IMG/VR virus record: IMGVR_UViG_3300020601_000005 | Length of the DNA: 64,000 nucleotides | Direction: 5' to 3' (one strand) | From: a virus | Part shown: positions 49,547 to 64,000 of the stretch, in pieces | Numbering within the stretch: the first letter of the stretch is position 1 | How the letters are laid out: each line of letters starts with the position of its first letter | The notes under the pieces: model-generated | The model's input: only the letters and a program-made list of their open reading frames with translations | Told to the model about the DNA's origin: nothing | The model's database searches: none | Position numbers and translations under genes: made by a program

Positions 49547-52075
49547 ATGAAATTTTATACTAATGTGAATCGTTATGGCAATAATATCCTTCTACGTGGT
49601 TATGTAGATGGTAAACGTGTCAATCGTAAAGTTAAGTTTAGTCCGACGCTGTACACCAGGGCAAAAGGGCAAACTCAGTTCAAAACTTTAGATAACGTAT
49701 TTGTCGAACCTAAAAAACTTGACACTATGCGTGATGCAAAAGACTTCATGGAACGTTACTCTGACGTAAGCAACTTTGAAGTATATGGTAATACAAACTA
49801 CATTGCTCAGTTTGTGGCCGAAGAATACCCAGGACAAATCCAATTCGATCGATCTAAAATCCGAATCCATGATATCGATATCGAGGTAGCATCCGACGAT
49901 GGTTTTCCAGAACCAGATCAAGCTAATCATCCAGTAACTGCAATTACAATCTACGATAGTATTACTAATGTGTATTTTGTGTGGGCCATGGGTGATTACG
50001 ACGTTGATGCTCGCGACGATAAGATTAAAGATTGTAATATCCGCTATACTAAGTGCGTGGATGAACAGCACTTGCTTAAATGCTTTATTAAGTTTTGGTC
50101 TGATGAGTTTACTTCTCCGGATGTTGTAACTGGTTGGAACATTCGTGCATTCGATATTCCATATCTGGTTAACCGTATTAATCGATTGTTTGGCGAGGAT
50201 GCAATTAAGTCACTATCTCCATGGGGTTCTGTCCAAGAGAAGATGGTAACTATGCGGAAGGGTCAAGTTCAAATCTATGAGATCACTGGTATTGCTCAGG
50301 TTGATTACATGGATCTGTTCATGAAGTTTGGCTATTCATTCGGTCCTCAAGAATCGTACTCGTTAAATCACATTGCAAACACCGTACTCGGTGAAGAGAA
50401 ACTATCATATGAAGAGTATGGAGATCTACACACTCTCTACAAAGAGAATCATCAAAAGTTTATCGATTACAACATTCGTGACGTTAACTTGGTTGAGCGA
50501 ATAGAAGATAAGATCGGTTTGATGACTTTATGTTTTACTATGGCTTATAAAGCTGGCGTAAACTATAATGACACATTCGGAACTACTGGTATATGGGATA
50601 CGCTGATCTATCGTTATCTTCTTGAACAGAACATTATCGTTCCTCCTAACAAGGATAGTTTCAAGACCGATTACGAGGGTGGTTATGTAAAAGAACCTCA
50701 ATGTGGTGTACACGACTGGGTTGCTTCGTTTGACGTCAACTCTCTGTATCCTAATATTATTGTCCAATGGAACATGTCACCAGAGACTATTCTCAAAGGT
50801 GATATTGAACCAAACATGAATGTTGATAGGTGTTTAAATGAATTTAAGAATCCGCACGCTGACAAATCTATGGCTGCTTCGGGTCAGTATTTCGATAATT
50901 CTCGTCAGGGTTTCATGCCGAAGATTATTGAGGCTATGTACGATGAGCGAGTACAAATCAAGAAGAAGATGCTTGATTCAAAAAAAGAACTTGAAAAGGT
51001 CGACAAGACTAACAAGACTGAAGTATACCGTATCGAACGTGATATCGCGACATTTGAAAACCAACAAATGACCGTTAAGATTCTTCTTAACTCTCTTTAT
51101 GGTGCGTTAGGTAATCGTTACTTCCGTTACTTTACGATGGAAATTGCAGAAGGTATTACACTAACTGGTCAATACATCATCAAGTGGGCAGAGAAGAACG
51201 TGAATGCGTATCTCAACACCGTCATGAAAACTAACAACGACTATGTGATTGCAATCGATACTGATTCTGTCTATGTTTGTCTAGGTGCACTGGTTGATCA
51301 AGTTATGCCTGGTAAGTCAAAAGATAAAGTTGTCGACTTCCTTGATAAGGTATGTGCCAAGATTGAAACCGATGTACTCGATGTTGCATTCAAGGAGCTG
51401 ATGGAAAACACCGGTGCGTTTAAGCAACGTATCTCCATGAAGCGTGAAAGTATTGCCGATCGTGGTATTTGGTCTGCCAAGAAGCGATACATTCTGAACG
51501 TATGGGACAATGAAGGTGTTCGTTACACAAAGCCTAAGCTAAAGATCATGGGTATTGAAGCTATTAAGTCTTCTACCCCAGCCCCATGTCGTGAAGCTTT
51601 TAAGGATCTATTTAATATCTTGATTTCAGGTACTGAGCAACAGACTCAAGAGTTTATCGCAGACTTCCGTAAGAAGTTTAACTCATTGCCTGTTGAAGAG
51701 AAGTCTTTCCCTCGTGGCGTTAGTGCGGTTCAGAAGTATGTAGATAAGAAGACTAAGTCTTACATCAAAGGTACTCCTATAAATTCACGTGCTGCTATCT
51801 TACATAACTACTTGTTGGATCGTCATGGATTGAAAAACATTGCTCCTATTCGTGCGGGTGAAAAGATCAAGTATGTGTATCTGAATCCACGCAATCCACT
51901 TCGTGAAGATGTTATCGGCTTCCAAAATATTCTTCCAAAAGAATTTGATATGCATCGCTATATCGATAACGCAAAACAATTTGACAAAGCATTCCTCGGG
52001 CCCGCTAAAATCATCTTAGACTCAATCGGATGGAAGGCTGAAGAGGAATCATCACTAGAGGACTTTTTTGGATGA
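49547..52075 (+). CDS. gp43: Family B DNA polymerase gp43
   Basis: Exo DIE, SFDVNSLYP, KILLNSLYG, DTDS, KKRY; no intron or intein evident. Confidence 0.98.
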   Translation: MKFYTNVNRYGNNILLRGYVDGKRVNRKVKFSPTLYTRAKGQTQFKTLDNVFVEPKKLDTMRDAKDFMERYSDVSNFEVYGNTNYIAQFVAEEYPGQIQFDRSKIRIHDIDIEVASDDGFPEPDQANHPVTAITIYDSITNVYFVWAMGDYDVDARDDKIKDCNIRYTKCVDEQHLLKCFIKFWSDEFTSPDVVTGWNIRAFDIPYLVNRINRLFGEDAIKSLSPWGSVQEKMVTMRKGQVQIYEITGIAQVDYMDLFMKFGYSFGPQESYSLNHIANTVLGEEKLSYEEYGDLHTLYKENHQKFIDYNIRDVNLVERIEDKIGLMTLCFTMAYKAGVNYNDTFGTTGIWDTLIYRYLLEQNIIVPPNKDSFKTDYEGGYVKEPQCGVHDWVASFDVNSLYPNIIVQWNMSPETILKGDIEPNMNVDRCLNEFKNPHADKSMAASGQYFDNSRQGFMPKIIEAMYDERVQIKKKMLDSKKELEKVDKTNKTEVYRIERDIATFENQQMTVKILLNSLYGALGNRYFRYFTMEIAEGITLTGQYIIKWAEKNVNAYLNTVMKTNNDYVIAIDTDSVYVCLGALVDQVMPGKSKDKVVDFLDKVCAKIETDVLDVAFKELMENTGAFKQRISMKRESIADRGIWSAKKRYILNVWDNEGVRYTKPKLKIMGIEAIKSSTPAPCREAFKDLFNILISGTEQQTQEFIADFRKKFNSLPVEEKSFPRGVSAVQKYVDKKTKSYIKGTPINSRAAILHNYLLDRHGLKNIAPIRAGEKIKYVYLNPRNPLREDVIGFQNILPKEFDMHRYIDNAKQFDKAFLGPAKIILDSIGWKAEEESSLEDFFG

Positions 52076-52662
52076 ACCAATTATTAGATTATATAAAAGT
52101 TTATGATGATGTTCTGGATGAAAATATTTGCCAGAATCTGATTGACACATTTGAAACATTCAACCCACAAAAATCTCCATTCTATCGACAATCAAAAAAT
52201 TCATGGGATCTAGACTATCGTCAGTTTTATGAATTTGATATTGCACGAGTAGTTGAATTTAATCATTTCATAAATCCGGTATATAATGTTGCTAAGAATA
52301 TATTTGCACGATACAATCGTGAATGCGGTAGATTCTTTCCGGAAAAGATGGGTTTCGAAGATCTGCGAATAAAACGATATGATGCGAATGGAATTGATCA
52401 ATTTGGTTGGCATGCGGATGTTGGCAATTACGCATCAGCTCGCAGATTCTTAGTTATGTTCTTTTACTTAAATGATGTAGAGGAAGGAGGCGAGACCGAA
52501 TTTCAATTTTCTGGTGATTACTCGAAGGTCCCGGACTTTACAGTAAAACCTAAACGTGGTAGAATAGTAGTATTCCCCCCAATGTGGATGTTCCCTCATC
52601 GTGGTTGTATGCCTATAAGCGGATCAAAATACATCCTTTCGACCTATGCTCATTATCAATAG
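52072..52662 (+). CDS. 2OG-Fe(II) oxygenase (prolyl-hydroxylase-like)
   Basis: WHAD (HxD), FYLNDVEEGGETEF, distal H in FPHRG, K in SKY. Confidence 0.88.
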   Translation: MNQLLDYIKVYDDVLDENICQNLIDTFETFNPQKSPFYRQSKNSWDLDYRQFYEFDIARVVEFNHFINPVYNVAKNIFARYNRECGRFFPEKMGFEDLRIKRYDANGIDQFGWHADVGNYASARRFLVMFFYLNDVEEGGETEFQFSGDYSKVPDFTVKPKRGRIVVFPPMWMFPHRGCMPISGSKYILSTYAHYQ

Positions 52663-55445: not shown

Positions 55446-55643
55446 ATGGGACCAGTGAGTGGATATTTCTCAGAACCAGGTACGTTAAACAGGACTAGCG
55501 AAGTCTTCGATAACATGGATGGTTCATATGTTGTTATGATGTATGAAGGAACTGATCTTCGCGAAGAGCGAATCATTGAAGGACATACATTGGATTATGC
55601 AGAAGACTGCGCAGAAAATTGGGTATTAGGAGTTATTAAATGA
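55446..55643 (+). CDS. Small hypothetical protein
   Basis: TGGTATAAT promoter and AAGGAG RBS; ends YAEDCAENWVLG. Confidence 0.65.
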   Translation: MGPVSGYFSEPGTLNRTSEVFDNMDGSYVVMMYEGTDLREERIIEGHTLDYAEDCAENWVLGVIK

Positions 55644-56062
55644 GTGTGAATTTGATTGAAGATATGGCGCATATGCACGACCACTATGGAGTACATACTG
55701 CAATTGAGAAGTTAACTGCAGAACAGTTAAAAACGTTCCTTAAATTTCGTATTGACTTTTTGCAAGAAGAGTTGGATGAGATGAATAAGGCTTATAATGA
55801 GGGCGGTGAAAGTGCAGCTGATGATACAGTTGATGCTTTGATTGATTTGGCTGTGGTTGCATTGGGTACACTTGATGCATTCCGAGTGAATGGTTATGAA
55901 GCATGGAACCGTGTTTATAAAGCAAATATGTCCAAAGTTGTTGGTATTAAAGAAAGTCGTCCTAATCCTCTAGGACTTCCAGACTTGATCAAGCCAGAAG
56001 GTTGGACTGCTCCGACTCATGTAGATAATGTTGGTTTATTGGAACAGGTATTTACAAAATGA
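55640..56062 (+). CDS. MazG/HisE-like all-alpha NTP pyrophosphatase (candidate dCTPase/dUTPase)
   Basis: QEELDE...DALIDL, V..ANMSK, KPEGW.AP. Confidence 0.8.
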   Translation: MSVNLIEDMAHMHDHYGVHTAIEKLTAEQLKTFLKFRIDFLQEELDEMNKAYNEGGESAADDTVDALIDLAVVALGTLDAFRVNGYEAWNRVYKANMSKVVGIKESRPNPLGLPDLIKPEGWTAPTHVDNVGLLEQVFTK

Positions 56063-57030
56063 TTGGTTTCACGGTTTTCAAATCTATCTTTGATAACAAG
56101 ACTGACGTAAGTGTCGACTTTGATAGCTTCGATAAGTTTGAAACTGCTTTATACCACTTGGCAACTAAGCCAGGTTATAAAGCACGGAAAGGCGAGTATA
56201 CCCCGAAAGGGGTTACTCCTTCTCCGCTGATATCTCCTGCAGTTTACAAAGAAGGAACCACCCGCGCCAACGCTAATGTAATTAAGTGGGCAGGTTGGGC
56301 CGCGGTAGATGTCGACCAAGCAGTGTTTGAGGGAAATCTAAAAGACGAGTTGCAGAAACGTTATGGTAACTGGCGTTATGTTTGTTATTCTACCGCCAGT
56401 AGTACGAATGAGCATCCTAAGTTTAGACTCGTCTTCCCTCTCTCCAGAGATATTCAGTCGAATGAAATCCGTCACTTCTGGTTTGCACTCAATACAGAAC
56501 TTGAGTCAATTGGAGATCTACAAACAAAAGATCTTAGTAGAATGTATTATGTTCCTGCTAAGTATCCTAATGCCAATAATTTCATTTTTAGTAATCCTGG
56601 CACTAATATTGAAGTAGATAGTCTTTTAGCAAAGCACGAGTATACGGAACGTACTGGAGATTCTTTCATGGATCGTCTACCAGAGTCTATGCAGAAAGAA
56701 GTGGTTGCATATCGCCAGAATAAACTTCGCGAGAGTTCACGAAGTTTCCATTGGACTTCATACTCAGATTGCCCATTCATTAATCATCGTTTGATCGGTG
56801 ATTATAAGGCAATTGCACGTACCGATGGTTCTGGTAGATACTCTATGATTTACAAGATCATGACGTCGATTGCATGTAATGCGGTTCGTCAAGGTTATGC
56901 AATCACAGAGTCTGAAATCTCCCAATTGATCCTCCAGTTAGATCGTGAGACCAGTAATATATACCAAAAACGACCATTGACCACAGAAGCTTCCAGAGCC
57001 ATAGAATACGCATACAAAACTGCAATGTAA
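56059..57030 (+). CDS. AEP-superfamily primase/primase-polymerase-like protein
   Basis: AAVDVD (motif I), YSTASS...PKFRLVFPL (motif II region), D..TKDLSRMYYVP (motif III), helical C-terminal domain. Confidence 0.7.
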   Translation: MIGFTVFKSIFDNKTDVSVDFDSFDKFETALYHLATKPGYKARKGEYTPKGVTPSPLISPAVYKEGTTRANANVIKWAGWAAVDVDQAVFEGNLKDELQKRYGNWRYVCYSTASSTNEHPKFRLVFPLSRDIQSNEIRHFWFALNTELESIGDLQTKDLSRMYYVPAKYPNANNFIFSNPGTNIEVDSLLAKHEYTERTGDSFMDRLPESMQKEVVAYRQNKLRESSRSFHWTSYSDCPFINHRLIGDYKAIARTDGSGRYSMIYKIMTSIACNAVRQGYAITESEISQLILQLDRETSNIYQKRPLTTEASRAIEYAYKTAM

Positions 57031-57080: not shown

Positions 57081-57344
57081 ATGATTGACCAAAACAAAGC
57101 TGAACAAATCCTCCAAGCACTATTCGACCATGAAGTTATGAGTGAACACGATTTAGAAAATTTATCGTTTCTATTATCGTCTTCAGAAGAAACTTTATTA
57201 GATTGGTATAGCAAAGTGGATGAAGAAGACTTACGCTATGCTAGCACTATTTTGAATATTGCCCATAACTTCTTTAGCGACAATGCCGTGGCGATCGATA
57301 CTACACAAGCAAATCAGATTTTGAAAAAGTATATGTATGATTGA
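57081..57344 (+). CDS. Small acidic hypothetical protein, probably leaderless
   Basis: DLENLSFLL...WY...EEDLRYA; ATG begins 6 nt after the -10 box with no SD. Confidence 0.6.
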   Translation: MIDQNKAEQILQALFDHEVMSEHDLENLSFLLSSSEETLLDWYSKVDEEDLRYASTILNIAHNFFSDNAVAIDTTQANQILKKYMYD

Positions 57345-57891
57345 AATTGCGCAAAAGCTAAAAGACTCCGGAACAGTACGGATCCCCAAAGAAGAGATAG
57401 AAGACGATATAGCCTCAATGGCTGTGGCGATCTTTAGTCGTGGTGCAGATTCTAGAACGCAAGAAGAAGTCTTCCGAGACTGTAAACGTATTGCGATCGA
57501 GTTTGCTTTAGTAAAAGTTCTAGGCGGTGAACGTAACCCCAAAGAGTTTAACTTTAGAGACAAAGACTCGTATATTTGGGACGTTAAGGTTGACGGTAAG
57601 AAGTTTGAAGTAAAGCGACATAAAACCGGCGCTAAATACTTTACCTACTCTGGCAAGAAAATCGGCACATACATCAAAAACTGTATGGACATTGATTATC
57701 TAGTCACGGCTTATATGGATGAATCGGATGATAACTATATTATCGACTTTGCCATGATTGTGGATTCGAAGAAGTTTGAATTCTATTTTCAGAAAAGTCA
57801 GTATAATAGTTCATACTATTACGATCATCGTATAGCGACCAAAACCGGCGATTGTGTAGCCTTTGGTCTAAGAGATGCAACAATTTATTAA
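57337..57891 (+). CDS. PD-(D/E)xK nuclease-like protein
   Basis: Helix AIEFAL, then WDVKVDGKKFEVK. Confidence 0.55.
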   Translation: MIEIAQKLKDSGTVRIPKEEIEDDIASMAVAIFSRGADSRTQEEVFRDCKRIAIEFALVKVLGGERNPKEFNFRDKDSYIWDVKVDGKKFEVKRHKTGAKYFTYSGKKIGTYIKNCMDIDYLVTAYMDESDDNYIIDFAMIVDSKKFEFYFQKSQYNSSYYYDHRIATKTGDCVAFGLRDATIY

Positions 57892-57900
57892 GAGGTGAAC

Positions 57901-58257
57901 ATGACACAATATACACGAGCATCAGCAAATATTCTTCTTGAGGCAGCAGAACTTCAAGAACGTAAAGGATTAGATTATAATAATCCCAATTCCTCAGTAC
58001 AACAAGCAGACTATTATCCGCGTGGAGTGTGGTCTGTTATGGATATTATTAACGCTAAATATCTTCGCATGGTATCTGTTCTAGAGACTATGGAACAAGG
58101 CGGGAAAGCTAACTTTGAATCTATTGAAGATTCTGCATTAGATTTGATTAATTATGCATCGTTCCTTGCAGCATATATGCGTGGGCAGATTCCAGGTCAA
58201 GATGTGTCAAAGAAAGATATATTTGGCCGCAAAGTGATTAAAGGAGAAAATAAATGA
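57901..58257 (+). CDS. Nucleotide-modification-associated all-alpha domain (DUF1599/Nmad1-like)
   Basis: ELQERKGLDY...K..R...ESIEDSALDLINYA. Confidence 0.7.
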   Translation: MTQYTRASANILLEAAELQERKGLDYNNPNSSVQQADYYPRGVWSVMDIINAKYLRMVSVLETMEQGGKANFESIEDSALDLINYASFLAAYMRGQIPGQDVSKKDIFGRKVIKGENK

Positions 58258-58931
58258 TTCGAGTAGAAGATATACGTACAGAATTTAATAATGCATTACT
58301 TGCAGAACAATTTACAGTAGATCGTAATACAGGAGTTCGAACGATTGAGTTGTTGAATGCAACCTTTATTGCAGATGAAGATAAAATTTTTGGTACAGTC
58401 AATCAAGAATACGTAGAAAAAGAACTGAGCTGGTATCGTTCAATGTCTCTCAATGTTAATGACATTGAAGGCGGACCACCTGCCGTATGGGCGCAAGTTG
58501 CAGATCCAGACGGATTTATTAATTCTAACTATGGATGGTGTATTTACTCTGAAGAGAATGGTTATCAGTTTAAACATGTGTTAGAAGAATTAGCACGTGA
58601 TCCCAATTCTCGACGTGCTAATATGATCTATACTCGTCCTTCAATGCATACTGATTATAATAAGAACGGTATGTCCGATTTCATGTGCACAAATAACGTA
58701 CAATATGTTCTTCGGAATGGCCAACTGCATGCGATGGTGTATATGCGCAGTAACGATGCAATTTACGGTTATAAGAATGACTACGCATGGCAAAAGTTTG
58801 TACAAGCCCAATTGTTAATCGGACTTAATGCACGAACTTCGTCATCATATGGTTTAGGCCGTATTATGTGGAATGCTGGTTCTCTGCACATATATGATCG
58901 CCACTGGCACTTGATTAAAAAAGAAGCATGA
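58254..58931 (+). CDS. gp42: dCMP hydroxymethylase (T4 gp42-like)
   Basis: INSNYGW, SRRANMIYTRPSM, GMSDFMCTN (catalytic Cys), MRSNDAIYGYKNDYAWQ with Asp at the dCMP-specificity position (Asn in thymidylate synthase), GSLHIY. Confidence 0.9.
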   Translation: MIRVEDIRTEFNNALLAEQFTVDRNTGVRTIELLNATFIADEDKIFGTVNQEYVEKELSWYRSMSLNVNDIEGGPPAVWAQVADPDGFINSNYGWCIYSEENGYQFKHVLEELARDPNSRRANMIYTRPSMHTDYNKNGMSDFMCTNNVQYVLRNGQLHAMVYMRSNDAIYGYKNDYAWQKFVQAQLLIGLNARTSSSYGLGRIMWNAGSLHIYDRHWHLIKKEA

Positions 58932-59383
58932 ATTCGAAACGACAAACAAATAAATGGAATAACAGATATATTTCATTAGCCAAGGAAATTTCTGCTTGGA
59001 GTAAAGATCCAAGCAGAAAGATTGGTGCAGTTGCAATTGGAGAAAAGGGACAAGTTTTGTCTCAGGGATATAACGGATTTCCCCGTGGAATATTTGATTA
59101 TGAATCTCGGTACTCGAACAGAGAGACTAAATATCAATACGTAGTTCACGCTGAAATGAATTGCATTTATAATGCAACTTATAACGGAGTATCTTTGGCA
59201 GACTCTTCTCTTTTTGTGTGGGGATTGCCTGCATGTTCTGAGTGTGCTAAAGGGATCATTCAAGTAGGTATTAAGAAAGTTTACTGGTCTACTGATGAAG
59301 TGATTCCTGATATATGGGAAAAATCGTTAAAGCTTTCTGAAAATATGTTTAAAGAATCAGGCGTAGATATTATTAAGTTATGA
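58928..59383 (+). CDS. cd: dCMP deaminase
   Basis: WSKDPS.KIGAV, GYNGFPRG, HAE, C.EC zinc motif. Confidence 0.92.
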   Translation: MNSKRQTNKWNNRYISLAKEISAWSKDPSRKIGAVAIGEKGQVLSQGYNGFPRGIFDYESRYSNRETKYQYVVHAEMNCIYNATYNGVSLADSSLFVWGLPACSECAKGIIQVGIKKVYWSTDEVIPDIWEKSLKLSENMFKESGVDIIKL

Positions 59384-60531
59384 ACATTGAACCAACCAAA
59401 CATTATGAAGAGTATCTGCGATACTTTGAGTTAGCCACTAAACAACAAGAACTTTGTAACTTTGGTTGGTTACCTCATAGTGAGTCGAACATGGGTGATA
59501 GCCTAATGGAAAACGTTGAGCTATACGATGTGGTAGAACGTAAGTACGCAGGATTCTCTCAGATCATCAACGATTGCTTTTACGGTTGGACTGAAGAACA
59601 CCCATACTGGAAAAAGATGGAAAGTGGCAATGCCACCATCCAACGTCAAATTGTTGCTAAAGACTGGACTGGAAAACATTCAGACTTTAAATTGGCGGAA
59701 TGGCTCTATCTATTCATTTTACATCGTGTAACTGGTTCTGCAATTAACTACGCAACTAAACCATCAGGCTATCATAATACTATTATTTTCCATCTTCATG
59801 AATGTCGGACCATTGAAGATATGACGAGGATCGTGAGGATCTATCACAAGCCTTTCTATACTTCGGTTGGATACCAGTTTCCGGCATTCCCTAAACCACC
59901 AGAAGGTGGTGATTACAAACGAGGCGGTGATTACTACCTCTGTGAATATGCTCCACGACTTGCACGTGAAATGGCTGAATGGTTGGAAAAAGGTGGTAAG
60001 CGAGATCTACGTGAACTAGGTGGGTTTATGCTCGATTGGAATAAGAAGAATGGTTTGCGCCAATACTTCTTTCAGTACGCAGCAACAGTTGCAGATATTG
60101 CCGATTGGTTCCCTCAGTATGTAAATCGCGACTCTATGTTCTACTACGGAACCAATGCTCGTGAATGTATTTCTTATTTGGCAACTCCAACCAAGAAGAT
60201 GAATCAGGACCAATTCCTTGATGAGGTCATGCAACAAATCTACTTGGATACAGGATCGTTTCCATATAATGCAGAAGACGTGTGTTGTGATTACATCCGA
60301 TGGGTAGAGAACTATATTCGACCTGGAGCAGCGTATAACCATTTGGACTTTGATAAGGTGTGGTCTTCATGCAAGATTAAAGATCATCCATTTGGTAGAC
60401 AAGAGGCTATGTTACAATTAGGATTGGTAGATACATTCAATGGTATCACTAAACACCCATCCGATGATTATATTATTAAGAAGGCCGGTTTAACGGTAGA
60501 AGAATACAAAGCAAAATGTCAAAGCCTGTAA
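59380..60531 (+). CDS. Divergent amino-acid:DNA transferase / aGPT-pyrophosphorylase-like protein
   Basis: Collinear motifs GDSLM..V.LYDVV.R, LHRVTGS, FFQY..TVADI, YGTNA..CI and NAEDVCCDYIRW parallel the family pattern DDPIL..F.N..R, R.FN, F.AY...DL, GPGA..GL, E..LCE..KY as recalled. Confidence 0.55.
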   Translation: MNIEPTKHYEEYLRYFELATKQQELCNFGWLPHSESNMGDSLMENVELYDVVERKYAGFSQIINDCFYGWTEEHPYWKKMESGNATIQRQIVAKDWTGKHSDFKLAEWLYLFILHRVTGSAINYATKPSGYHNTIIFHLHECRTIEDMTRIVRIYHKPFYTSVGYQFPAFPKPPEGGDYKRGGDYYLCEYAPRLAREMAEWLEKGGKRDLRELGGFMLDWNKKNGLRQYFFQYAATVADIADWFPQYVNRDSMFYYGTNARECISYLATPTKKMNQDQFLDEVMQQIYLDTGSFPYNAEDVCCDYIRWVENYIRPGAAYNHLDFDKVWSSCKIKDHPFGRQEAMLQLGLVDTFNGITKHPSDDYIIKKAGLTVEEYKAKCQSL

Positions 60532-61511
60532 TTACAAATCCTATTAGCAATATTCCCAAGCTTGCAAACTCCCACGTACGGGGATGGTCACAGGTGTGGG
60601 CGGAACAGCTTAACGCTGAAGTGGATCATAAGTGTTCCACCAACATACTTAACGGATCGTTAGTGTACATCGAGCATGGTGTAAACTTTGGTGGAACACT
60701 TAATCTATTTGGCGGTGCGGGCCAAGATATTTTTGAGAAAATCGATCGTGTTATGCAATGTAAGAATGTTGTATCACTAGATTTCGACATGCCCAATTGG
60801 GGTGAACAACTGCGTAAACGTATCGGAAATGCAACTACATATGATGGAATCACTGAAAAGTGGTGTGATATGCTATCTAGTTGGTGTACATCAAACGTAC
60901 CATCTCTAAAGCAAGAAAATATCGATTGGCTCAATGACATTTCGGTGGGTGACAGTCATACTCCTGCTTTTTCTCAGGCAAATGATGTGGTGTTACGTAC
61001 TAACGGCAAAACATTGTTTGGTACATTAAAGAACGGTCTTAAGAATGAATTCCGTGGAATGACACCTAAAGGACAGATCACATTTAGTCTTGGTTCCATT
61101 GATATCCGTCATCACTTGCTTCGTCATGACGATAATCTAGATAATATGATATCAGAGTATGTTGCACAAGGCCAGGAACTTGAGCGTGAATATGGGGTGG
61201 ATGTATATTACGGAGCACCAGTGCCTGTCGAATATGAGGATAGGAAGCTTCCTAAGTCTGGATATTTCAAAGGTACTCCATTTTTTGGATCACGTGATGA
61301 TCGGATCCGACTTACGCTTAGGTTTATTGAACTACTAAATACACATAGTGGAAACAAGGTTATAATGCCCCCAGAGGAGTGGTACCATATGGATGGTGAG
61401 AAGTATGCCAAGATGCATATGGAAGCCAGTTCTAGTGTTCATATATCGCCAGAGTATTATAGGCGATATAATTGGGGCAAACAAGACTCCCTCGAGGGGT
61501 TTTTCAATTAA
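60516..61511 (+). CDS. Two-domain protein: BGT-like N-terminal domain plus SGNH-like domain (putative DNA-base acyltransferase/esterase)
   Basis: GTLNLFGG...VVSLDFDMP in the N-terminal half; VGDSH, LGSIDIRH and SSVHI in the C-terminal half. Confidence 0.45.
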   Translation: MSKPVITNPISNIPKLANSHVRGWSQVWAEQLNAEVDHKCSTNILNGSLVYIEHGVNFGGTLNLFGGAGQDIFEKIDRVMQCKNVVSLDFDMPNWGEQLRKRIGNATTYDGITEKWCDMLSSWCTSNVPSLKQENIDWLNDISVGDSHTPAFSQANDVVLRTNGKTLFGTLKNGLKNEFRGMTPKGQITFSLGSIDIRHHLLRHDDNLDNMISEYVAQGQELEREYGVDVYYGAPVPVEYEDRKLPKSGYFKGTPFFGSRDDRIRLTLRFIELLNTHSGNKVIMPPEEWYHMDGEKYAKMHMEASSSVHISPEYYRRYNWGKQDSLEGFFN

Positions 61512-61572: not shown

Positions 61573-62316
61573 ATGGCCGCTCAACAAGGCTTCCAATACG
61601 AAATAAATGCAAGTAATATGCTTAAACCAATGGGCTTCGTGCCTAAATCGTTTAAGCCTGCAGGCGCTGGTCATGACCAGCCTGACTTAATGCTCTTGCA
61701 TAAAAAGAAAGAAGCCGGGTGTGAGCTTAAGATTACTGCTGCATCAGCAGGTTCATTGGTCATAAAATACGATTCTAAAGATAAGAGAAACCCTTGGAAG
61801 TTCGGTGATATTAAAGCCGACGAGGATGAGAAAAGGTTCATTGCTGATCTTGCTAAAGAGGTTAAGTTGTTTGACCTTATCAAAAAGCAATGGAAAGAAA
61901 AACCGTATAAAAGAGATAAAGACGTTGAATGGAATGCAACTGCTGGTAAGATGACTCCTAAACAAAGATATGAAAGAGATCGTGATACCTTTGCCGATAT
62001 CCGTGGTGAAATTCCTGCAACGAAAATAGAGCAGTATTATAATCGTAAAGATACACACTATGTCAATGTTGGCACGCATGGTTTCTATTTAATGGGAAAG
62101 GCAAACCCTCTGAAATTAAAAGGTGTTCCTACATTCGGTGCTTCTGCAAAGGCTACGTATAGAGCCCGTGTTCAATACAAGGGCTCTGGAAATTATCAGT
62201 TTACGTTTGAAATGCAATTTAGTATGAAATCTAAATCTCCATACAACATTGCTCCAGTTGATGGAAAGAGCGTTACTATTTTAAAAGATAAATTAAACCT
62301 GGGATGTTTTGTATAA
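61573..62316 (+). CDS. Restriction-endonuclease-like PD-(D/E)xK protein
   Basis: GFQYE helix, QPDLML, GCELK; Lys-rich. Confidence 0.65.
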   Translation: MAAQQGFQYEINASNMLKPMGFVPKSFKPAGAGHDQPDLMLLHKKKEAGCELKITAASAGSLVIKYDSKDKRNPWKFGDIKADEDEKRFIADLAKEVKLFDLIKKQWKEKPYKRDKDVEWNATAGKMTPKQRYERDRDTFADIRGEIPATKIEQYYNRKDTHYVNVGTHGFYLMGKANPLKLKGVPTFGASAKATYRARVQYKGSGNYQFTFEMQFSMKSKSPYNIAPVDGKSVTILKDKLNLGCFV

Positions 62317-63267
62317 ATGAAAAACTTTATAGACTTTTTAACTGAAGCCTCTGGTAGTTCTTCTAATGAACACTTTGGCGTTGCATATGAAACTGCAACA
62401 GCGATGCATTTGCATCATATGACTGGTTCTAAGACTAACAACGATCCAGAACATAAAAAACGAATGCAAGAGATTGGATCGAAGGGTAAAGCTGCTTTTG
62501 ACAAGCTTCCTGATCATCTAAAGAGTCGTGCTTTGCAATCAGCTAAAGCATCCGCCGAGTCTTATATTGAAAGTCTTAAAAAGAATCACAAGATTAATCC
62601 TGCTGATATTCATGAAGTTCATCATACTTCAAAGGGAATCGATCATTTGATTAATGCTAAAGCTGATCGTATTCAAAACCCGCATGACGTTGTTGTTAAG
62701 ACTAAAGATGGAAAACTACATGGAGCGTCTTTAAAGGCAACGCAAGGTACTCTAAGTAATAACGGTATCGGTACTTTCGACAGTCAGAATAAAGGTCATA
62801 TTAAAACTGAGGTTGGCTCTATATGGGCAAAAGGTAAAAAGAAAGCCGGCTTAGAAGGCAAGAGCGGAGCAGAAATTAAAGCCGTACGTAATGATCCTAA
62901 AGTAAAAGCTGCAAATAAAGAAACACAGGCAGAGGCTGCAGCACACCATAGTAAACAGTTCAACAAGGCTTCTATTGAAGATCAACGTAAGCATCTACGT
63001 TATATTATGAAATCTGAAAAACCTGCAGTACCATATGACTACGTCAATGGAGAAAAGAACAAGTCAGTTCCTAGCCATCAACTTGATCACGCTCAAGCTA
63101 TTGAGAAGTCTAAGAAGTTTGAAATGCGTCATACCGCCGGAAGTAATCTAGTTAAGATCCACGACGACGAAGGTAGACACGTGGCAACAGTTGAACACAG
63201 ACCGACTCATGGTGCATTCTCTGGAGTACAAGTTAATACTAAAATTGGTACTATGAAGGCAAGTTAA
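62317..63267 (+). CDS. Basic PD-(D/E)xK-like protein with capsid-targeting-like N-terminus
   Basis: MKNFIDFLTE leader; GVAYE, NPHDVVV, GASLK (SLK variant). Confidence 0.55.
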   Translation: MKNFIDFLTEASGSSSNEHFGVAYETATAMHLHHMTGSKTNNDPEHKKRMQEIGSKGKAAFDKLPDHLKSRALQSAKASAESYIESLKKNHKINPADIHEVHHTSKGIDHLINAKADRIQNPHDVVVKTKDGKLHGASLKATQGTLSNNGIGTFDSQNKGHIKTEVGSIWAKGKKKAGLEGKSGAEIKAVRNDPKVKAANKETQAEAAAHHSKQFNKASIEDQRKHLRYIMKSEKPAVPYDYVNGEKNKSVPSHQLDHAQAIEKSKKFEMRHTAGSNLVKIHDDEGRHVATVEHRPTHGAFSGVQVNTKIGTMKAS

Positions 63268-63319: not shown

Positions 63320-64000
63320 ATGTTAAAGCTTAAAGAATTCATCGCCGAAGAAAAGAACACCCACATGGAACACGTTGAGGATATGATCTTCAATGAAGGA
63401 GTTGAGGGTGCACGTAAATCTATTTTATTCTTACGCGATCTTCGCGACATGTTAGCCGGCAGTTCTACATCTAAAGTTACTGCAACGGTAAAATGGGATG
63501 GTGCTCCGGCCGTTTTTGCTGGCGTAGATCCAAGAGATGGTAAATTCTTTGTTGCAAAGAAAGGCGTATTCAATAAATCGCCTAAGGTATATAAGACTGC
63601 GGCAGAAATTGATGCAGATACTTCGGGAGATCTTGCGGCAAAATTAAAGATCGCATTGATAGAATTCTCAAAGTTGGGCGTAAAAGAAGGTGTGTTCCAA
63701 GGTGATTTGATGTTCACCAAGAACGATCTTAAGAAAGAAAATATCGATGGACAGGATTATATAACCTTCCATCCAAATACTATTGTCTATGCTGTTCCGT
63801 ATAATAGTGAACTAGGCAAGAAGATTAGAGGTTCAAAGATCGGTGTTGTTTGGCATACGACGTATTCCGGAAAAACATTCGAGACTATGAAAGCAAGTTT
63901 TGGTAAAACTATAGTTGACAAGTTAAACGAGGTCCAATCCGTTTGGATGGACGATGCTAATTATAGAGATTATTCTGGCACAGCGACGTTCACGAAAGCT
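63320..64000 (+). CDS. DUF6267-like protein with ligase-type KxDG motif, 3'-truncated (not in ORF track)
   Basis: MLKLKEFIAEEKNTHMEHVED...TVKWDGAPAVFAG.DP.DGKFFVAKKG...FQGDLMF; frame appears open to the window end. Confidence 0.75.
   Translation, partial: MLKLKEFIAEEKNTHMEHVEDMIFNEGVEGARKSILFLRDLRDMLAGSSTSKVTATVKWDGAPAVFAGVDPRDGKFFVAKKGVFNKSPKVYKTAAEIDADTSGDLAAKLKIALIEFSKLGVKEGVFQGDLMFTKNDLKKENIDGQDYITFHPNTIVYAVPYNSELGKKIRGSKIGVVWHTTYSGKTFETMKASFGKTIVDKLNEVQSVWMDDANYRDYSGTATFTKA

Follow-up and report, generated by a model that had tools for sequence, protein, structure and literature searches.

A phage protein joining a BGT-like acceptor-side domain to an SGNH fold, with gene partners that suggest kinase-free modification of hydroxymethylcytosine

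Within the window, a 64,000-nucleotide stretch of viral DNA, an open reading frame on the plus strand (60516-61511, ATG start, stop included; PHROG 13881) encodes a protein of 331 residues, hereafter the target. Upstream on the same strand lie a MazG/PRA-PH-like NTP pyrophosphatase (55640-56062; Pfam PF01503, E 1.6e-5), a candidate dCTPase that may fill the role of gp56; a DenB (endonuclease IV)-like nuclease (57337-57891; PHROG 1360, with a weak Phage_T4_End_IV match), which fits a genome without plain cytosine; a weakly Nmad1/DUF1599-like protein (57895-58257) conserved in 29 of 83 related loci; a gp42-type dCMP hydroxymethylase (58254-58931); a dCMP deaminase recognised by both Pfam and PHROG (58928-59383); and p383, an AADT/HMUDK_hel-like protein of 383 residues (59380-60531), the last 16 nt of whose gene overlap the start of the target. 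T4 gp42 makes hydroxymethyl-dCMP, and the thymidylate-synthase-like gene 1.6 kb upstream of the target is a true gp42 orthologue (55% identity, E 2e-91; Pfam Thymidylat_synt), so that the base concerned is hydroxymethylcytosine (hmC). The region gave no megablast match to phage records, and p383 gave no tblastn match to phages at 1e-5; on this basis the phage is without a close cultured relative.

An earlier note had read the target as a beta-glucosyltransferase (BGT) acceptor domain fused to an SGNH domain that replaces the UDP-glucose domain, citing motifs in its N-half (VYIEHG, GTLNLFGG, VVSLDFDMP) and C-half (VGDSH, LGSIDIRH, SSVHI). The frame is real and all of these motifs occur in its translation. 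They are not a product of chance: the AF2 model, built with 55 homologues as input, has a mean pLDDT of 95.4 and resolves two confidently modelled domains, each of which finds the proposed fold in structure searches. Scans of Pfam and NCBIfam placed the target in no family, a phmmer search of PDB sequences returned nothing meaningful, and none of the papers that we found describes the family. Residue conservation was counted over 179 relatives with identities down to ~26%; Ser147, His148, Asp196, Arg198, His200, Arg243 and Arg263 are present in all 179 and His309 in 177.

The N-terminal domain (residues 1-134; 60516-60917) is homologous to the N-terminal, acceptor-side domain of T4 BGT by both hhalign and VIA. 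Modelled separately it reached a pLDDT of 96.7, and among 48,161 PDB chains the top-ranked VIA match was T4 BGT itself (1c3j_A; Z 5.7, rmsd 3.3 over 101 residues, model residues 2-134 against chain residues 1-138), a weak structural match with the next fold at 5.1. Profile against profile, the domain aligned to the 28-member BGT family with an hhalign probability of 95.8% (E 6.7e-9, 95 columns), the alignment being confined to BGT residues 1-120. Against a single BGT sequence a profile reached only 63%, and BLASTP between the target and T4 BGT was insignificant; judged by sequence, the link is convincing only at the profile-profile level. The domain had no Pfam match at an E cut-off of 0.1, and its profile found nothing meaningful among PDB sequences. 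Foldseek against the PDB returned only weak TIR and flavodoxin rows; a TIR reading was rejected on account of the specific BGT profile match and because no TIR-type conserved site is evident.

The two BGT motifs that the earlier note cited, SSINFFGG and YLFTDIRLP, are indeed present in T4 BGT. In family alignments the loop N63-L-F-G-G67 of the target (60702-60716) is the counterpart of BGT N70-F-F-G-G74, making an N-x-F-G-G loop common to the two families. N63 is retained in 178, G66 in 162 and G67 in 174 of the 179 relatives, and N70, G73, G74, T99 and D100 are invariant across the BGT family. The suggested equivalent of the catalytic aspartate did not hold, as BGT Asp100, which follows strand 4, has no conserved counterpart in the target: D89, the closest acidic residue, occurs in only 117 of 179 relatives, and D91 is not conserved. 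The target thus shares with T4 BGT (PF09198; PDB 1c3j) a homologous Rossmann-like N-terminal domain and, in T4-like phages, a location near gp42, and both presumably act on hmC in DNA. It differs in that the UDP-glucose-binding C-domain of BGT (R191, R195, R269, E272) is absent, an SGNH fold standing in its place; it lies below every Pfam threshold and is not a glycosyltransferase.

This SGNH-hydrolase-fold domain spans residues ~135-325 (60918-61490) and was recovered by VIA and by Foldseek, the latter with a probability of 1.0. For residues ~132-322 VIA listed over 50 different SGNH/GDSL structures, with Z running from 12.2 down to 9, the best being 3p94_A (Z 12.2, rmsd 3.5, 168 residues), with a three-layer alpha/beta/alpha architecture around a parallel sheet. 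The likeness to SGNH/GDSL enzymes, including PDB 3p94, PatB (7tjb/8tlb), the OatA C-domain (6vjp) and CE2 esterases (2wao), is one of fold (Z 12.2-9.4) and of topology, with the GDS motif after strand 1, a Gly/Asp block after strand 3 and a histidine towards the C-terminal side, all in the expected places; some of the matched entries, namely PatB and OatA, are titled acyltransferases. At the level of sequence the SGNH signal is nearly absent. The Lipase_GDSL families of Pfam gave no match to the target, two relatives scored only E 0.02-0.04, below cut-off, and an hhalign comparison of the target family with E. coli TesA covered no more than the GDS block, at a probability of 1%.

The key residues behind the reading of GDS, GxxD and xxxH as SGNH blocks, Ser147, Asp196 and His309, are conserved; the SGNH oxyanion asparagine and triad aspartate are missing. 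Block I, G145-D-S147-H148 (60948-60959), holds Ser147 as putative nucleophile, with G145, S147 and H148 in 179 of 179 relatives and D146 in 178; in the Block II region G164 is found in 129 and T166 in 175. The Block III-like segment G193-S-I-D196-I-R198-H-H200 (61092-61115) conserves G193 and D196 and places isoleucine at the usual oxyanion position. This residue, 195, is Ile or Val in 178 of 179 relatives and never Asn, leaving the family without the Block III oxyanion asparagine. In the Block V-like segment M302-E303...S307-V-H309 (61419-61442), His309 is the putative general base. The position three residues before it varies among S, K, Q and R and is never Asp; judging by its retention in 176 of 179 relatives, E303 may serve as the third triad member in place of Asp, so that the site could work either as a Ser-His dyad or with Glu303. 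A conserved basic loop, R243-K-x-P-K...F256-x-G258...R263 (61242-61304; R243 and R263 in 179 of 179), is a candidate contact for DNA or for an anionic donor. This loop, the extra invariant His and Arg residues, the fused DNA-enzyme domain and a cytoplasmic setting further distinguish the target from the SGNH enzymes that it matches. Both folds were found by structure search, SGNH strongly and BGT at Z 5.7, and the proposed architecture, a BGT acceptor-side domain carrying an SGNH domain instead of the UDP-glucose domain, is supported by VIA (SGNH at Z 12, BGT at rank 1) and by hhalign (95.8%).

The near-obligate neighbour of the target is p383, which accompanies it in 69 of 83 target-anchored loci; conversely, the target is present in 38 of the 40 p383-anchored loci that extend at least 2.5 kb on both sides. 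The two form one polypeptide of 719-795 residues in metagenomic proteins and in cultured phages, among them Aeromonas phages 44RR2.8t, 31, 25 and Aes508, Stenotrophomonas phage IME13 and Tenacibaculum phage PTm1. The C-halves of these fused proteins align with p383 at an hhalign probability of 100% (E 3e-56), and the fusion with the p383 family is certain. A complex prediction for the separate proteins scored 0.16, which lies below the mark and speaks neither for nor against binding. The aGPT-Pplase families are said to have been defined by Iyer et al. 2013. Several features suggest that p383 resembles the amino-acid:DNA transferases (AADTs): E299, C303 and R307 do not vary across 41 diverse sequences, some of them fused forms, and parallel the essential Cys and neighbouring Glu of AADTs (PMC8989533); PF18723 (HMUDK_hel) matches a fused form at E 9e-4 and 19 bits, against a cut-off of 25 bits; and, as a lead, the Atlas feature neighbours of p383 carry HMUDK_hel or ADDT. 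For p383 itself Pfam and NCBIfam scans returned nothing, the Pfam matches falling below cut-off; its profile matched no PDB sequence, and hhalign against M6 gp51, a characterised AADT, gave a probability below 1%. Comparisons of p383, c13 and the target with M6 gp51, gp53, gp54 and gp55 were likewise without hhalign signal.

Across the 83 loci, gp42 lies within 10 kb of the target in 56, many of the others being cut by contig ends, and a PLP decarboxylase homologous to M6 gp52 (probability 97.3%, E 1.8e-11) is found in 64. The conserved neighbours of the target include no P-loop kinase, and conserved genes for acyl-CoA-binding or carrier proteins are likewise missing from its surroundings. The window together with 10 kb downstream contains no kinase or PLP gene and, over that span, is the minimal two-gene form of the system (target and p383) without a PLP decarboxylase; the Aeromonas phages likewise have only these two components. 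Glucosyltransferases are absent from the T4-like Aeromonas phage 44RR2.8t (PMC2993671), and the cultured T4-like Aeromonas phages with the fused protein possess gp42 and lack glucosyltransferases. Our own search of 44RR2.8t with PF09198 found no match, and its control was equally silent, so it is evidence of nothing.

To our knowledge, post-replicative hypermodification by an 'activate, then substitute' logic has been worked out only for thymine, where a 5-hmdU kinase is followed by an amino-acid:DNA transferase. Here that logic seems to be applied to hmC by way of an unrelated enzyme, in an activating or a partner role, that combines a glucosyltransferase DNA-binding domain with an esterase-type catalytic domain, and the gene partners suggest that the target helps to add a chemical group to the hmC of phage DNA without the usual DNA kinase. 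The folds, homologies, invariant residues, gene linkage and fusions are observed, whereas action on DNA, acyl chemistry with its donor and product, and the sequence of the reactions are what we infer. The reading to which we lean, tentatively, is that the target is an acyl-enzyme that O-acylates hmC in DNA and so takes the place that the 5-hmdU DNA kinase (5-HMUDK) has in thymidine hypermodification. The N-domain, from the BGT lineage, would bind hmC-containing DNA and present the flipped base; Ser147 and His309, perhaps with Glu303, would form a covalent acyl-enzyme from an acyl donor and then acylate hmC at its 5-CH2OH. The resulting 5-acyloxymethylcytosine would bear a carboxylate leaving group, and the co-translated p383, through Glu299 and Cys303, would attack C6, expel the carboxylate and add a nucleophile. 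Much the same role had been proposed in the earlier note, and the architecture and a fitting gene context (gp42, p383, no conserved P-loop kinase) speak for it; the BGT aspartate and the SGNH oxyanion Asn and triad Asp do not. Indeed, the non-canonical SGNH site, with Ile at the oxyanion position and no Asp at -3 of His309, counts against this reading, as do the scant SGNH signal in sequence, the missing acyl-CoA-binding or carrier-protein genes, the weak N-domain match, the non-conserved equivalent of BGT Asp100, the sub-threshold Pfam matches of p383 and a similarity of p383 to M6 gp51 too low to detect. Furthermore, Cys-dependent enzymes can replace the hydroxyl of hmC without prior activation, so that an activating step may be dispensable.

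The parallel with 5-HMUDK (M6, ViI, SP10, PhiW-14, PaMx11) is one of context. Like the kinase, the target has genes for a hydroxymethylase, an AADT-like protein and often an M6 gp52-like PLP enzyme as companions, and in some phages the target is fused to an HMUDK_hel/AADT-like helical domain just as the kinase domain is. By contrast, the target has no P-loop, an unrelated fold and no Pfam or NCBIfam kinase family, and hhalign with M6 gp54 is silent; its base would be hmC where that of the kinase is hmU, and its leaving group, if any, a carboxylate instead of a phosphate. Its placement at the position of 5-HMUDK in the pathway is accordingly a functional analogy only.

A different order of events is conceivable, in which p383, with or without c13, modifies hmC first and the SGNH domain then removes an acyl group from the added moiety or adds one to it, as when an amino acid acylated on O or N is deprotected. 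Most SGNH enzymes act as esterases or deacylases, the thymidine pathways include tailoring acyl chemistry (the PaMx11 gp48 acetyltransferase, for example), and the target gene often adjoins that of the PLP enzyme. Such tailoring enzymes vary between clusters, however, whereas the target accompanies p383 almost without exception (38 of 40) and is fused to it; the minimal two-gene systems lack other tailoring genes, and a BGT-like N-domain points to the hmC base itself as what is recognised. Following the pattern of the thymidine systems, the near-universal presence of the target, while the PLP enzyme and c13 vary, points to a core activating step, and we regard later tailoring as unlikely.

Rather less probable, in our estimation, is that an O-acyl-hmC such as 5-acetoxymethylcytosine is itself the final product in the minimal systems, with p383 acting not as a transferase but as a subunit that presents the DNA or flips the base. 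An allylic or benzylic-type ester on C5 is a reactive electrophile, and would be ill suited as a stable end product. Of the system, the window and the Aeromonas phages do carry only the target and p383, and in canonical 5-HMUDK the kinase is joined to a homologous helical domain (PF18723) that is possibly a DNA-presenting part. Yet p383 holds an invariant Glu/Cys/Arg motif like the one that AADTs need for catalysis, and in most relatives there is also a PLP decarboxylase, an enzyme that requires an appended amino acid. Derivatisation of the hmC oxygen beyond glycosylation is known, in the form of 5-carbamoyloxymethylcytosine (PMC8670742), a terminal O-derivative that lends some precedent both to the reading we favour and to this alternative. 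The hmC carbamoyltransferase identified by MetaGPA (PMC8670742) offers a parallel to the activity proposed for the target: it derivatises the oxygen of hmC with a group other than a sugar, and in uncultured phages its gene has TS-like, MazG-like and dCMP deaminase genes for neighbours; it differs in belonging to an unrelated TobZ-type family, in using carbamoyl phosphate and ATP as donor, and in yielding a terminal product without an AADT-like partner.

Were Ser147 to carry a phosphoryl, phospho-linked or other non-acyl group, the target would be a true kinase substitute generating a phosphate-type leaving group. The loss of the oxyanion Asn and the five invariant basic residues around the motifs (H148, R198, H200, R243, R263) would suit this, as would an AADT-like partner whose family is, by homology, adapted to a phosphate leaving group; DNA-backbone binding explains the basic residues equally well, though, and there is no phosphotransferase among the SGNH structural matches. 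We know of no SGNH-fold phosphotransferase, and consider the idea improbable. It is very improbable that the target does not act on DNA at all, whether it modifies free hm-dCMP or hm-dCTP (the hmC carbamoyltransferase accepts 5hmdCTP too; PMC8670742) or is a sugar or envelope esterase merely lying within the replication module (phage SGNH proteins are commonly tail-associated esterases, and in ~13 loci genes for a UDP-sugar dehydrogenase and an epimerase come after the module), given an N-domain homologous to a DNA-acting enzyme, tight linkage and fusion to an AADT-like protein, linkage to gp42, and a small, soluble-looking form without tail-protein context that tail esterases match at fold level only.

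If hmC is indeed O-acylated by the target, the fate of this base would be accounted for in those T4 relatives that have gp42 and no glucosyltransferases, and a further cytosine derivative would be predicted in very common environmental phages, by a route that abundant aquatic T4-like phages share with the cultured Aeromonas phages. The presence of a PLP decarboxylase in most relatives would call for an appended amino acid. It is tempting to speculate, with slightly more reserve than we attach to the acylation itself, that the target is the first DNA-base O-acyltransferase: through an acyl-serine it would give hmC a carboxylate as leaving group, and a Cys-dependent, AADT-like partner would then attach a substituent not described before to C5 of cytosine, with no ATP-dependent kinase involved. 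Such a protein might also furnish a new enzyme for the selective chemical tagging of 5hmC in DNA. Because cultured carrier phages exist, the question is directly testable. In a public assembly collection, the exact target protein is listed in 49 blocks, 28 of which include contigs of 50-200 kb.

The open reading frame at 60516-61511 (+ strand) encodes a 331-residue protein, the translation of which contains every motif quoted in the earlier note. It shares its first 16 nt, from the ATG onward, with the preceding reading frame (59380-60531, encoding a 383-residue protein termed p383), an overlap from which we infer that the two genes are probably translationally coupled. The protein has no match in Pfam or NCBIfam; within PHROGs it belongs to phrog_13881, of unknown function (E 5e-93), and also aligns with phrog_17781, over the first third of that family's ~795-residue proteins. 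Its relatives form a large, almost exclusively viral family, with 493 clusters when grouped at 90% identity, 389 representatives at 50%, and Atlas clusters of up to 1,311 members that are 99-100% viral. The assembly collection lists this same protein in 49 of its blocks, and the protein's relatives in BFVD are all labelled 'uncharacterized'.

Modelled separately (pLDDT 96.7), residues 1-134 form a predicted four-stranded Rossmann/flavodoxin-like unit. Among 48,161 chains its top structural match was T4 β-glucosyltransferase (BGT; 1c3j_A, Z 5.7, rmsd 3.3 over 101 residues), in a collinear alignment of residues 2-134 with 1-138; T4 α-glucosyltransferase ranked tenth. With TIR and flavodoxin folds close behind (Z 5.1-4.6), the structural case for BGT is weak when taken alone. 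Sequence profiles settle the predicted identity of the domain as BGT-like: aligned with the profile of the 28-member BGT family, residues 2-102 matched BGT 1-115 (probability 95.8%, E 6.7e-9, 95 columns), and the full-length profile gave 94.2%. In this alignment N63-L-F-G-G67 lines up with BGT N70-F-F-G-G74, in which N70, G73 and G74 are invariant within the BGT family; N63 is kept in 178 of 179 relatives and G67 in 174. The acceptor domain proposed in the earlier note was thereby borne out. BGT's catalytic residue, Asp100, has no conserved counterpart (D89 occurs in only 117/179).

Unlike T4 BGT, the protein lacks the whole UDP-glucose domain, and, as had been proposed, an SGNH domain stands in its place. 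When an AF2 model derived from 55 diverse homologues (pLDDT 95.4, pTM 0.91) was compared using an exhaustive structure aligner, SGNH/GDSL hydrolases and acyltransferases filled the top 50 rows for residues ~132-322, with Z falling from 12.2 (3p94_A) to 9.0. The peptidoglycan O-acetyltransferases PatB and OatA and CE2/CE3 esterases were among these matches, and Foldseek was concordant (probability 1.0, E 3.5e-4).

Conservation was assessed over 179 non-identical relatives, among them fused forms and a divergent class at ~30%. G145, S147, H148, D196, R198, H200, R243 and R263 are invariant; H309 occurs in 177 (the remaining two being gaps), E303 in 176 and T166 in 175. The GDS, GxxD and His blocks recognised earlier sit at fold-appropriate positions in the model, with GDS following strand 141-145, G-x-x-D following strand 188-191 and H309 standing before the last helix; S147 and H309 are therefore the putative nucleophile and base. 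The site is nevertheless non-canonical by comparison with SGNH enzymes: Ile/Val occupies the oxyanion Asn position, and no Asp lies three residues ahead of H309. The loop from R243 to R263 is basic and strongly conserved which, with the extra His and Arg residues, suggests an anionic substrate, either the DNA backbone or a phosphorylated donor.

Upstream in the window lie genes for a family-B DNA polymerase, UvsX, a gp41-type helicase and a MazG-like pyrophosphatase, then an AEP-type primase-like protein, a DenB-like nuclease and a weak Nmad1/DUF1599 match. The order continues with a thymidylate-synthase-like gene, dCMP deaminase, p383 and the BGT-SGNH gene. The thymidylate-synthase-like product is 55% identical to T4 gp42 dCMP hydroxymethylase (E 2e-91), hence the modified base made by this phage is, judged by homology, 5-hydroxymethylcytosine (hmC) and not hmU. 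The primase-like protein (56059-57030; phrog_9765, E 2e-53), downstream of the helicase, is kept in 30/83 related loci. Between the polymerase and uvsX is a 196-residue 2OG-Fe(II) oxygenase (52072-52662; PF13640 in the identical contig L169). Two proteins 3' of the BGT-SGNH gene, of 247 residues (61573-62316; phrog_26930, unknown function) and 316 residues (62317-63267; no match), are not kept beside it in related loci; a ligase-like reading frame with a K-W-D-G motif follows (63320-64000), the full gene in L169 encoding 410 residues with DUF6267.

Proteins 68-69% identical to p383 adjoin BGT-SGNH homologues in unrelated contigs. Gene clustering across 83 loci (80 viral contigs found via the BGT-SGNH protein, together with L002, L004 and the window) identified p383 (69 loci), a PALP-type PLP enzyme (64), dCMP deaminase (57) and gp42 (56), most commonly in the order gp42, deaminase, BGT-SGNH, PLP enzyme, p383 or a permutation of these. 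Reciprocally, the BGT-SGNH gene was present in 38 of 40 p383-anchored loci with flanks of 2.5 kb or more on each side. Aeromonas phage 44RR2.8t ORF233c is one of a set of 719-795-residue proteins whose C-halves are homologues of p383 (hhalign probability 100%, E 3e-56), so the two form a single polypeptide in some phages. This fused C-half resembles Pfam HMUDK_hel, the helical domain of 5-hmdU DNA kinase, at a level below the cut-off (E 9e-4), and in the Atlas the clusters nearest to p383 by features have HMUDK_hel in 11-36% of members and ADDT in 12%. No direct similarity between p383 and M6 gp51 was detectable. E299, C303 and R307 are invariant in a 41-sequence p383 alignment; amino-acid:DNA transferases (AADTs) depend on a Cys together with a nearby Glu, and displace phosphate from 5-phosphomethyl-dU via a C6 thiolate adduct (PMC8989533).

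M6 gp52, a PLP-dependent decarboxylase of amino-acid-nucleobase conjugates, is a homologue of the PLP enzyme (probability 97.3%, E 1.8e-11, 215 columns). A further ~320-residue protein, c13 (e.g. L002:7012-7983), which has no Pfam family, is probably a distant paralogue of p383 (hhalign probability 79.9%, E 1.4e-5), with which it shares the ED..C ('EDK.C') and 'P..VDP.S..GG' motifs. A full module may thus contain two AADT-like proteins. It occurs in 16/83 BGT-SGNH-anchored and 64/80 p383-anchored loci. Most relatives have the PLP enzyme and c13 beside the BGT-SGNH gene; both are absent from the 64-kb window and the 10 kb beyond it (L169:10997-20996), and this phage carries the minimal two-gene form, as do about a dozen other loci. 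The module is often followed immediately by genes for UDP-glucose/GDP-mannose dehydrogenase and NAD-dependent epimerase (about 13 loci, e.g. L023:12838-14582 and L021:3120-3926), mostly in loci where BGT-SGNH and p383 adjoin and no PLP gene separates them; such variants may involve a sugar-derived group. In 16 loci (e.g. L014:8859-9329) gp42 is closely preceded by a gene for a cytidylyltransferase-like protein (PF01467), and in 13 loci of one phage lineage (e.g. L069:10987-11253) a ribosomal protein S21 homologue is encoded directly 3' of the BGT-SGNH gene.

Taken together, the evidence best supports a predicted role for the BGT-SGNH protein on hmC in DNA, exercised jointly with p383. It is tempting to speculate with the earlier note, at somewhat short of an even chance, that an acyl-enzyme arises on the SGNH domain and passes its acyl group to the hydroxymethyl of hmC in DNA, this O-acylation taking the place of a DNA kinase step. 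We favor this reading because the protein is the invariant partner of a transferase-like protein, because it is fused to p383 as the kinase domain of 5-hmdU DNA kinase is to its related helical domain, and because no P-loop kinase occurs among its conserved neighbors. Less probable alternatives are that the protein is a later tailoring enzyme, that an O-acyl product is itself the terminal modification, that Ser147 carries out chemistry other than acyl transfer, or that the substrate is something other than DNA.

A literature search combining hydroxymethylcytosine, bacteriophage and SGNH, with Iyer et al. 2013 outside its scope, found no description of this architecture. SGNH is mentioned neither in the thymidine-pathway paper nor in the MetaGPA paper, which used Pfam domains to compute its associations (PMC8670742).

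Cultured Aeromonas phages also have the minimal form, as the fusion and with no PALP gene. Phage 44RR2.8t carries a gp42 orthologue, and phages 44RR, 31 and 25 possess genes 42, 56, alc, denA and denB and no glucosyltransferase genes (PMC2993671; PMC2771037). The fused protein is thus a candidate for the hmC-modifying activity otherwise unaccounted for in these phages. Directly upstream of the fused gene in 44RR2.8t lies a sodium:solute symporter homologue (ORF234c, L001:3405-4928), which might import the attached group or its precursor.
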